A DNA stretch of 64,000 nt from Verrucomicrobiota bacterium (lineage in GTDB: Bacteria; Verrucomicrobiota; Lentisphaeria; JABSQK01; JAJFLO01). The notes under the pieces are model-generated. The model had not been told where the DNA came from. It saw only the letters and a program-made list of their open reading frames with translations, and did not search any database. The stretch covers positions 9,338 to 73,337 of the forward strand of contig JAJFLQ010000029.1 of NCBI GenBank assembly GCA_021772615.1. Direction: 5' to 3'. Below, piece after piece: positions 1-64,000 of this stretch. Numbering within the stretch: the stretch's first letter is position 1; the number at the start of each line of letters is the position of its first letter. Position numbers and translations under genes: made by a program.

Positions 1-663
1 TCAATTGCCGAAGCGTTTACTTCTGATGAACGATATATCAGCGTCTGGATTGGTGACCCTGGAACCGGTCACGCCGACCTGATCGAAGTCTCCCCTCGCC
101 AACGCGTCGTCAGCACACCGTACGCCATAGCCGCCCGGAAATCTGATTTCGCCGCATACGCCGACCATGCAGCGACGGCCGACCACGCAGAGACGGCGAA
201 CACGGCGAACACTGTCGCCGGCGCCAATCTCCACGTCGATCCAACCACCGGAAATGTCGGCATCGGCACGCCGCAACCCTCTGGCAAGCTGGATGTAAAC
301 GGCAACATTCGGATCCGCTCCGGCGGACTGACCTTTCCCGACGGCAGCGTCATGACATCCGTCCCGAAACCCGCCGCCACCGGCTCACTCGGGACATTTA
401 CGCAAGGGGTGAAATACTACAACGATCGGGAGCGAAAAATATTGGTTGTCGCGTATTCAAAGCTTAACAATAACGGCGTCATATCCGGCTTATTGGGAAC
501 AACAATAAACGGTGGGTTCAGTGAAGTAGCCTTCTCGGAAAACAACGGTCCATACAGTCCAAACAGCCGCTCGATTACATTTGTAGTTCCGCCGAACATG
601 TACTGGATGGTAACAGTATATAACCACTTGCATGGATATCGAATTGAAGCATGGGAATTATAG
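1..663 (+). CDS. 5'-truncated fibre/adhesin paralogue 1 (conserved N-terminal domain, GNVGIGT shaft, phage tail-fibre-like C-terminal tip)
   Basis: Frame 1 is open from base 1: SIAEAFTSDERYISVWIGDP...SPRQRVVSTPYAIAA...TGNVGIGTPQPSGKLDVNG...LTFPDGSV, running into the track ORF 352..663. It aligns by eye with the three downstream paralogues (PRQxxxSxPY motif). The tip YYND...KILVV...SITFVVPP..YW.V...WEL resembles small C-terminal domains of phage tail fibres. Confidence 0.85.
   Translation, partial: SIAEAFTSDERYISVWIGDPGTGHADLIEVSPRQRVVSTPYAIAARKSDFAAYADHAATADHAETANTANTVAGANLHVDPTTGNVGIGTPQPSGKLDVNGNIRIRSGGLTFPDGSVMTSVPKPAATGSLGTFTQGVKYYNDRERKILVVAYSKLNNNGVISGLLGTTINGGFSEVAFSENNGPYSPNSRSITFVVPPNMYWMVTVYNHLHGYRIEAWEL

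Positions 664-64000: not shown

Follow-up and report, generated by a model that had tools for sequence, protein, structure and literature searches.

Do genes for phage-like fibres, a cohesin scaffold and giant immunoglobulin-like (Ig) proteins that follow one another on a single strand build one surface apparatus, or do several surface systems share one stretch of DNA? The question is raised by 64,000 nucleotides of contig JAJFLQ010000029.1 (the window; G000:C127:9338-73337 in our numbering, where G000 is the host genome and C127 the contig). The host genome comprises 6.78 Mb in 205 contigs and is 91% complete and 1.5% contaminated. A sequence-only reading of the window had proposed a cellulosome-like and largely non-enzymatic 'adhesome', in which giant stalks and scaffolds display interchangeable receptor-binding modules. 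Our analysis leans, on balance, towards a composite island of four modules and not one machine.

The window is filled by nine long open reading frames (ORFs), all on the plus strand, with intergenic gaps of 126, 67, 28, 45, 378, 112, 8 and -29 nt in this order. They form the core of a contig of 100,695 bp that consists of 13 co-oriented genes (gaps 13, 110, 126, 67, 28, 45, 378, 112, 8, -29, 9 and 266 nt). In all eight proteins whose N-termini lie inside the window, the first ~70 residues contain basic residues and, after these, a hydrophobic 12-mer (mean Kyte-Doolittle hydropathy 1.9-3.05). Likewise, every gene of the contig whose start is present encodes basic residues and a hydrophobic segment near the N-terminus. 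Hydropathy alone is a crude check, and these starts are called signal-peptide-like only. Pfam scans of the 13 contig proteins detected no capsid, terminase, sheath, tube or baseplate families, no type VI secretion system (T6SS) or other delivery genes, no ABC/MFP/TolC transporter families and no RTX repeats. No clear enzyme family was found by Pfam in the window proteins. The sole match to a catalytic family above threshold was a partial Glyco_hydro_16 match (2.2e-8) in residues 1354-1418 of a 3843-aa protein, covering profile positions 86-140 of 175. Because this partial match overlies a LamG-type stretch, we read it as a likely sign of a shared concanavalin-like fold and not of an enzyme. 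The nine same-strand genes with mostly short gaps or overlaps, the eight signal-peptide-like starts and the lack of capsid, sheath, tube, baseplate, transporter and clear glycoside hydrolase genes, all noted in the sequence-only reading, were confirmed. That reading had also pointed to a prophage or contractile injection system in the flanks as a possible source of the fibres, and neither was present there.

We propose that the 13-gene, 100.7-kb island encodes exported surface or extracellular proteins, presumably by the Sec route, of an uncultured bacterium of the Planctomycetes-Verrucomicrobia-Chlamydiae (PVC) group. The first module, upstream of the window, would be a Tc-BC-like RHS protein encoded after a 763-aa partial gene. 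The second would consist of four tandem mini-fibres of the mosaic adhesive trimer (MAT) kind, with a constant base and different tips. In the third, a three-cohesin scaffold and a CARDB-dockerin protein would form a node of a plug-and-socket network and be tethered by Trp-rich modules that we call GWN. The fourth would be a five-gene array, from a beta-helix/LamG protein to an RHS protein, that acts as a unit. Export, trimerisation, cohesin-dockerin binding, GWN tethering and adhesion are thereby predicted from the genes, domains, paralogy and tag distribution described below.

The four mini-fibres and their relatives

The first four genes of the window encode the fibres.

1-663, + strand: fibre 1, 3' end; the full gene (341 aa) begins 362 nt upstream of position 1 (NF053851, 1.6e-4)
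940-2301, + strand (ORF opens at 790): fibre 2, MAT-like N-domain and glycine-rich GP38 tip (GP38 2.4e-9; phrog_11439 1.9e-23)
2369-3073, + strand: fibre 3, 234 aa, minimal form with a signal-peptide-like leader, N-domain, one shaft repeat and small Cys tip (N-domain modelled with high confidence, see below)
3102-4148, + strand: fibre 4, 348 aa, MAT-like N-domain and Cys-containing tip (NF053851, 1.5e-7, 31.4 bits, cut-off 60)

The four proteins are paralogues of 234-453 aa with 32-39% identity. All share a hydrophobic leader, an N-domain of ~120 aa and a phage-fibre-type repeat, and they end in four unrelated tips; in fibre 1, for example, the signal-peptide-like start and MAT-like N-domain are followed by a short shaft and the protein's own tip. 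Fibre 2 (a 503-aa ORF from position 790, with an ATG at 940) matched GP38, the sole Pfam match among the four, as well as the 'tail fiber protein' family phrog_11439. Together with the shaft matches in the PDB described next, this confirmed that the fibres are phage-fibre-like, as the sequence-only reading had stated, and they carry signal-peptide-like starts.

MAT fibres have been described in Bdellovibrio bacteriovorus (Caulton et al. 2024, PMC10769870). In that paper, the MAT N-domain is a beta-rich, conserved stretch of ~130 aa that directly follows the signal peptide and has no homologue in the PDB; the tips are diverse, and the base must bind a surface element that is not identified there. 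MAT-like proteins are stated to occur in other bacteria, 'predatory and otherwise'. We found that the NCBIfam model Bdello_MAT_N (NF053851) matched three of the four fibres (1.5e-7, 1.6e-4 and 2.3e-4), at 21-31 bits against a cut-off of 60. A 15-member fibre profile matched six PDB sequences at E <= 0.1. The best was 8ond ('bd2133', 3.3e-13), followed by 8oml, 8ol4, 8ojn and 8on4 (each a 'cell wall surface anchor family protein', 4.8e-7 to 2.6e-4) and by 7dc3 (0.031). From their names and the wording of the paper we infer that the four 'cell wall surface anchor' entries are Bdellovibrio MAT structures. By these profile matches the fibre shaft is related to solved MAT shafts.

The monomer model of fibre 3 has a beta-strand N-domain with a predicted local distance difference test score (pLDDT) of about 85-94 and a shaft at 39-56. 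A fold search with this model gave no match at E <= 0.001 in the PDB or BFVD, and the N-domain is thus without a PDB fold match, as PMC10769870 states for its Bdellovibrio counterpart. Weak matches to phage minor tail proteins were seen for the fibre model, with a best E of 1.3e-3. The fibres further resemble MAT proteins in having a conserved beta-rich base after a signal peptide, matching shafts, swapped tips and several paralogues per genome. In contrast to the Bdellovibrio proteins, the four fibres are short, none ends in an S74 chaperone-protease domain, and their N-domain matches the Bdellovibrio model below its cut-off. They also differ in forming a tight tandem array beside a cohesin scaffold, in a PVC host with no known predatory habit. 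We would assign the four genes to the MAT kind as small members without S74, or else regard them as its close kin, and the proteins would be trimeric surface adhesins with four ligand specificities.

A profile of the N-domain and shaft repeat found 82,356 representatives at E <= 1e-3, and 554 at E <= 1e-30. In many of these the best-matching stretch begins near residue 20-50, and eleven short examples from outside this genome all open with a signal-peptide-like leader. Other homologues carry beta-helix, discoidin, YadA, C1q or Peptidase_G2 domains as tips. When loci related to the nearest outside homologue (P0016) were searched for in metagenome contigs, nothing was found. The tip of fibre 4 (window 3762-4145, ~130 aa, Cys-containing) had no Pfam match at E <= 1 and is conserved in four metagenome proteins with 39-42% identity, which align over 53-57% of fibre 4. 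Three of these four open with LamG_3 and not with the fibre base; to judge from these alignments, the occurrence of one tip on such different N-termini looks like clear module swapping.

A prophage or contractile injection system of which only the tail fibres are left could account for the phage tail-fibre families matched by the tip of fibre 2 and for the weak likeness of the fibre model to minor tail proteins. We consider this very improbable, since no phage or injection-system family is present among the 13 contig proteins and all four fibres have signal-peptide-like starts. In the bacterial and metagenome proteins that were inspected, the base domain also directly follows such a start. With no such genes on 100.7 kb of DNA, a prophage or injection-system origin is close to refuted.

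Cohesins, dockerin tags and GWN modules across the genome

The scaffold and the small dockerin protein follow the fibres.

4194-9965, + strand: scaffold, 1923 aa, three cohesins, four HYR stretches and Ig-like domains (Pfam)
4266-4697, 5406-5825 and 6132-6548, + strand: cohesins of the scaffold (Pfam, 67.6 bits for the whole protein)
About 5832-6059, + strand: dockerin-like loop pair of the scaffold (by eye and regular expression only)
7056-7355 and 9213-9518, + strand: two copies of a beta-sandwich domain, VFDGD, in the scaffold (own model)
8616-9071 and 9570-9953, + strand: two pairs of Trp-rich GWN modules in the scaffold (own model)
10344-11519, + strand: small dockerin protein, 391 aa, signal-anchor-like start and an unnamed domain of ~150 aa (Dockerin_1 2.7e-8, CARDB 1.1e-4)
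10905-11510, + strand: CARDB-dockerin C-terminal tag of the 391-aa protein (own model)

The Dockerin_1 match of the 391-aa protein scored 34.3 bits against a cut-off of 22.9, and an alignment of 13 sequences showed the duplicated loop-helix pattern in the dockerin part of the tag. The cohesin-dockerin scaffold of the sequence-only reading was thereby recovered in Pfam, as a three-cohesin protein that adjoins a CARDB-dockerin protein. This is the only one of the 13 contig genes with a Pfam dockerin; the fibres and the giants of the contig have none. Because neither carries a dockerin, the idea that the scaffold displays fibres or giants is unsupported.

Across the genome, 19 Pfam dockerin matches were found on 14 contigs, and cohesins occurred in three proteins (on C127, C48 and C71) with five to six modules in total. 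The tag, GWN and VFDGD were counted with models built from the window's own modules. The CARDB-dockerin tag is a unit of ~200 aa at the extreme C-terminus of 13 ORFs, 12 of them outside the C127 locus and including open frames of 13,377 and 10,471 aa. Its dockerin part has a mean column identity of 71% across the 13. Outside this genome the tag was found in six proteins at 45-51% identity, with varied cargo and in one case with RHS repeats (P0192). That search gave one match in the 215-685-aa band and five in the 686-2000-aa band, with proteins longer than 2000 aa excluded, and within this range the tag appears to be rare. No dockerin-borne carbohydrate-active enzyme was seen in the window or in the tagged proteins of C200 and C7 (three of the 13 tagged proteins scanned); one tagged protein on C146 carries the precomputed label PF07995.

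GWN modules were present in 36 ORFs, of which 31 have two or more copies, nearly always as a C-terminal pair. Such a pair terminates the scaffold, one other cohesin protein and ~30 other proteins. It had no Pfam match at E <= 1, and the Atlas returned only unnamed clusters. Pfam found no SLH or sortase anchor on the scaffold, and the GWN pair may be the tether to the cell surface. Among the GWN-bearing ORFs is a 12,587-aa open frame on C10. On the minus strand of C13 (G000:C13:236-1138), part of a fibre base domain and a GWN pair are fused directly in a 301-aa ORF, which could hint that fibre base and GWN modules act at the same place.

VFDGD is an unnamed beta-sandwich of ~116 aa with the motif GDEIGVFDGD and a model pLDDT of 87.5. 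Its model gave no PDB match at E <= 0.001 (best 1.3e-2, template modelling score 0.5), and it had no Pfam match at E <= 1. Only six ORFs of the genome contain it: the scaffold, the seventh and eighth genes of the window (genes 7 and 8), the two paralogues of these genes and the cohesin protein on C71. Several copies carry a nested LamG_3; for gene 8 and its paralogue, the insertion site is a loop near model position 50-58.

A complex prediction for the third scaffold cohesin and the 391-aa protein's dockerin, with alignments of 5 and 13 sequences respectively, scored 0.00 in both runs, and the fold of the partner was uncertain; it counts neither for nor against binding. The domain content suggests that cohesins and dockerins bind each other in this genome. 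The scaffold and the 391-aa protein may be read as one node of a genome-wide plug-and-socket network that is not specific to the cluster. With cellulosomes this network shares a multi-cohesin scaffold, many cargo proteins whose extreme C-terminus is a dockerin, and adjoining cohesin and dockerin genes. Unlike in cellulosomes, the cargo consists of Ig, LamG, beta-helix and CARDB giants instead of glycoside hydrolases, and the dockerin is fused to CARDB in a fixed ~200-aa tag. The scaffold also differs in having no SLH or sortase anchor and in ending in GWN pairs, and the host is a PVC diderm. Of the proposed non-enzymatic, cellulosome-like 'adhesome', the plug-and-socket proteome that is largely without enzymes holds in spirit at the level of the genome; for the cluster as a unit the idea is unsupported. 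We know of no established purpose of cohesin-dockerin sets outside cellulose degraders.

The giant-protein array and the Tc-like and RHS genes

The remainder of the window holds the first three genes of the array.

11632-23163, + strand: gene 7, 3843 aa, two tandem units of beta-helix/NosD, fn3 and LamG_3; array gene 1 (Pfam)
16339-17406, 20695-21039 and 21640-21975, + strand: five VFDGD domains of gene 7 (own model)
22714-23136, + strand: C-terminal GWN pair of gene 7 (own model)
23172-33131, + strand: gene 8, 3319 aa, five LamG_3, nine ASH/HYDIN-type Ig and two BACON_2 domains; array gene 2 (Pfam)
23244-23594, + strand: the one intact VFDGD of gene 8, which has two further copies split by a LamG_3 insert (own model)
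33103-64000, + strand: giant, first 10,299 codons of 11,996 aa, ending 5,093 nt past the window; array gene 3 (ORF and contig reading)

In the giant, a very hydrophobic segment lies at the N-terminus and a LamG_3 at the C-terminus; Big_7 arrays and repeated LVIVD/Big_5/TIG units are also present. Beyond the window follow array gene 4, a 3467-aa Ig-type protein (Glucodextran_B, Big_5, Big_6 and TIG), and array gene 5, a 3543-aa DUF6531/RHS protein. The first three array genes contain 13 LamG_3 stretches. The giant Ig/LamG proteins of the sequence-only reading were hence also found by Pfam, with LamG_3, ASH/HYDIN Ig, Big_7, TIG, Big_5 and LVIVD domains.

The contig proteins were compared by tblastn with the host genome, which revealed a diverged and collinear second copy of the array.

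C41:3-10952: paralogue of gene 8, 37% identity (tblastn)
C41:11099-34057: paralogue of giant residues 20-7431, 46-53% identity (tblastn)
C3:6-13817: paralogue of giant residues 7441-11944, 34-36% identity (tblastn)
C3:15027-23987: paralogue of the 3467-aa protein, 43% identity (tblastn)

The next gene on C3 encodes 4413 aa with eight RHS stretches and a PT-HINT pretoxin domain. Since the match continues from the end of C41 into the start of C3, these two contigs probably adjoin. For gene 7, residues 26-1687 and 1936-3451 each aligned at 35-39% identity with a single-unit protein of 2253 aa on C7. Gene 7 is thus an internal tandem duplication, and its C7 homologue has the dockerin tag where gene 7 has the GWN pair. 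The C7 gene is followed by a gene for a LamG_3 protein that runs off the contig end, and the order C7-C41-C3 fits one second array. Upstream of the C7 gene come first a small gene that weakly matches PEP-CTERM and next genes of the opposite strand. Apart from the tag of the C7 protein itself, our own models found no cohesin, dockerin-tag or fibre genes in the first 30 kb of C7.

To judge from these alignments, an old duplication probably copied the array as a whole, and the array probably works as a unit. That both copies of so old a block (34-53% identity) are intact suggests a joint function of the five genes, to which fibres and scaffold would not be obligatory. The array is most likely a long-reach adhesin layer coupled to an RHS toxin. 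Giant adhesins such as LapA, SiiE and MpIBP have thousands of residues of tandem Ig-like extenders with ligand-binding modules near one end, and the same layout of long tandem extenders and ligand-binding modules near one end is seen here. The proteins of the array differ from them in their Sec-type, signal-like N-terminal starts in place of a C-terminal type I secretion (T1SS) signal, and no RTX repeats or ABC/MFP/TolC genes are present on the contig. With N-terminal signal-like segments and with neither RTX repeats nor a transporter on the contig, a T1SS adhesin was rejected as a candidate.

Toxin-like genes stand at both ends of the island; neither the Tc-like gene upstream nor the RHS gene downstream had been foreseen by the sequence-only reading. 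Upstream of the fibres, a 2185-aa Tc-BC-like protein contains SpvB, FG-GAP, TcdB-mid/N, DUF6443 and RHS repeats (Pfam: SpvB 4e-23, TcdB_toxin_midN 4.9e-20, RHS_repeat 3e-16, FG-GAP_3 2.5e-14). A helical partial gene of 763 aa (C127 positions 2-2293) ends 13 nt before it. The 763-aa protein had no Pfam match at E <= 1 and no PDB sequence match. In its Atlas listing, a TcA_TcB_BD cluster stood at rank 10 with a score of 0.89, below the 0.9 line; this is a weak lead, by which the protein may be a divergent TcA-like partner. The SpvB, TcdB-mid/N, FG-GAP and RHS domains of the 2185-aa protein are those of Tc B-C toxins. RHS/YD-repeat toxins are resembled by the 3543-aa protein, with DUF6531 and RHS, and by its paralogue, with RHS and PT-HINT. 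In contrast to such toxins, the proteins of the island have signal-peptide-like N-termini, and neither Pfam nor the PDB sequence search recognised a TcA. Their genes also lie among giant adhesins and not in a toxin-complex operon or T6SS locus.

These genes bring up a contact-dependent attack or capture island, in which fibres and giants hold a neighbouring cell and Tc-BC-like and RHS cocoons deliver toxins. The Tc-BC-like gene is directly upstream of the fibres, an RHS gene closes the array, an RHS protein is again the last in the second array copy (here with the PT-HINT pretoxin domain), and the outside protein P0192 combines RHS repeats with the dockerin tag found here. Bdellovibrio uses MAT fibres for prey recognition, although non-predatory bacteria have MAT-like fibres too (PMC10769870). 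Neither a toxin domain nor an immunity gene could be recognised at the C-termini of the RHS proteins, the contig has no T6SS or delivery genes, and the TcA partner is only the weak lead described above. We regard this island as rather unlikely.

The abundant beta-helix/NosD repeats, the 13 LamG_3 stretches and the BACON_2 and Glucodextran_B modules would also suit a coat for foraging on glycans or particles, with LamG, BACON, CARDB, beta-helix and Ig modules as binders, and perhaps cutters, of biofilm-matrix polysaccharides. Such a coat would be like a cellulosome both in its parts and in its purpose. Beta-helix/NosD repeats occur in polysaccharide lyases and hydrolases. The only sequencing run that holds the window's DNA is labelled as a biofilm metagenome, and this run may be the source of the assembly. 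Apart from the partial GH16-profile match over a LamG-type stretch, no catalytic family was found above threshold, and a foraging coat leaves the fibres and the RHS and Tc-like genes unexplained. It is thus an improbable account, and more so than an attack island.

Composite island or single apparatus

Several results weigh against the composite reading. All four modules lie in one co-oriented run with short gaps. Two of the four fibre loci of the genome are within 2 kb of a cohesin or dockerin gene, compared to 32 of 3792 gene-like ORFs (0.84%). These two loci are the fibre array of the window and C200, where a tagged 2814-aa protein is encoded 1.4 kb upstream of an 1148-aa fibre. Because genes for secreted proteins cluster, this proximity is suggestive only; together with the short-gap co-orientation it nevertheless favours a link between fibres and scaffold that the composite reading plays down. 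As to the MAT assignment, all matches to the N-domain model are under its 60-bit cut-off, fibre 3 has none, and the fibres measure 234-453 aa compared to about 1000 aa for the Bdellovibrio proteins (PMC10769870). The join of C7 and C41 is inferred, and so is the DNA that precedes the second array copy. Finally, relatives that share these genes are lacking, which limits the test of conservation.

Among 40 relatives, the fibre N-domain was present in eight, all of which belong to the 14 genomes of the same order, and cohesins were present in four of these 14. Two genomes (G004 and G011) have both, but never on one contig; in G004, cohesin and dockerin genes adjoin. When the first 1200 residues of the giant were searched against the 40 relatives, only one Ig-type match was obtained (4.8e-4, in G007). 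The co-location of the fibre, cohesin/dockerin and giant families that the sequence-only reading expected was therefore not seen in the 14 order-level genomes, where cohesin and fibre never share a contig and the giant was not found. This result speaks against one conserved apparatus, but the test is weak because the relatives belong to other genera and because G004 and G011 are fragmented (610 and 440 contigs).

One integrated apparatus, in which the cohesin scaffold holds fibres and giants, perhaps with the 391-aa protein as adaptor, would account for the single strand and the short gaps, with fibre gene 4 ending 45 nt before the scaffold gene. It would also account for the CARDB-dockerin giant near the C200 fibre, for the enrichment of fibre loci near cohesin or dockerin genes over background and for the rare VFDGD domain common to the scaffold and genes 7 and 8. 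On the other hand, fibres and window giants have no dockerin, and 12 proteins outside this locus carry the tag. In the first 30 kb of C7, beside the opening gene of the second array, our models found no cohesin gene, no fibre gene and no tag except that gene's own, and cohesin and fibre matches are on separate contigs in the order-level relatives. We judge one integrated apparatus to be about as unlikely as an attack island. Slightly less likely again, and put forward as speculation, is that the mini-fibres are exchangeable 'fingers' of a plug-and-socket organelle. Their base would dock to an adaptor (the N-domain of the 391-aa protein) or to a scaffold module, the adaptor's dockerin would bind the scaffold, the GWN pairs would tether it, and giants together with RHS and Tc-like toxins would serve to capture and kill or to attach to a host. 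If true, this would name the long-sought surface partner of MAT-type fibre bases.

A composite island thus remains the reading we favour, and whichever arrangement holds, three poorly understood things meet here: non-cellulolytic cohesin-dockerin sets, MAT-type fibres and huge proteins of the PVC group. The genome has 88 open frames of at least 1500 aa (12.6% of its bases), 29 of at least 3000 aa and five of at least 10,000 aa. According to PMC11573180, Dockerin_1 is frequent in bacterial huge proteins, those of Planctomycetota among them, and huge proteins are enriched in Lentisphaerae and Planctomycetota. Among the records returned by a pattern scan, the host's RpoB (on C172) had best-segment identities of 61-62% with metagenome-assembled genomes (MAGs) of Verrucomicrobiae/Chthoniobacterales, 59% with Pontiellaceae and 54-56% with Lentisphaerae-labelled MAGs; for the host we claim placement in the PVC group only. 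The set of parts is small and defined, with five to six cohesins, one tag on 13 proteins, GWN in 36 ORFs and four short fibres. Attachment of the fibres through the plug-and-socket network, if real, would account for the way in which cells of several phyla hold such fibres. Otherwise, the locus remains a record of a non-enzymatic surface proteome of plug-and-socket type and of a five-gene array of giant adhesins and RHS protein that stayed together as a block after duplication.

The assembly of the fibre and scaffold region was compared to contigs that a second assembler produced from one DNA run. Eight listed pieces cover window positions 1-20000 with zero differences and an even depth of ~5-12; positions ~2788-2823 and 3004-3121 fall outside these pieces. 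As the DNA run may be the source of the assembly, this agreement is not independent support. No RNA runs were listed for window positions 2300-12000, and the only run listed was the one DNA run. In window positions 1-12000, 12 promoter-like sites were counted compared to 6.5 +/- 2.9 in shuffles, and eight terminator-like sites compared to 12.9 +/- 3.3. These counts do not define operon limits. Rfam gave no match in the same 12,000 nt.

Two repeats were observed in non-coding DNA.

770-870, strand not assigned: palindromic intergenic repeat of ~100 nt, a hairpin like those of repetitive extragenic palindromes (REP) or miniature inverted-repeat transposable elements (MITE); fold -49.1 kcal/mol, z = -6.0

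This element, which does not belong to the protein system, has inverted arms of ~25 nt and no Rfam match. Further copies of the arm lie at 14 places on 13 other contigs, in no case inside an open frame of 300 aa or more. At the far end of the contig, after the RHS gene (C127:99742-100695), AT-rich non-coding DNA contains two copies, recognised by eye, of a repeat of a few hundred nucleotides, which may explain why the assembly stops there.

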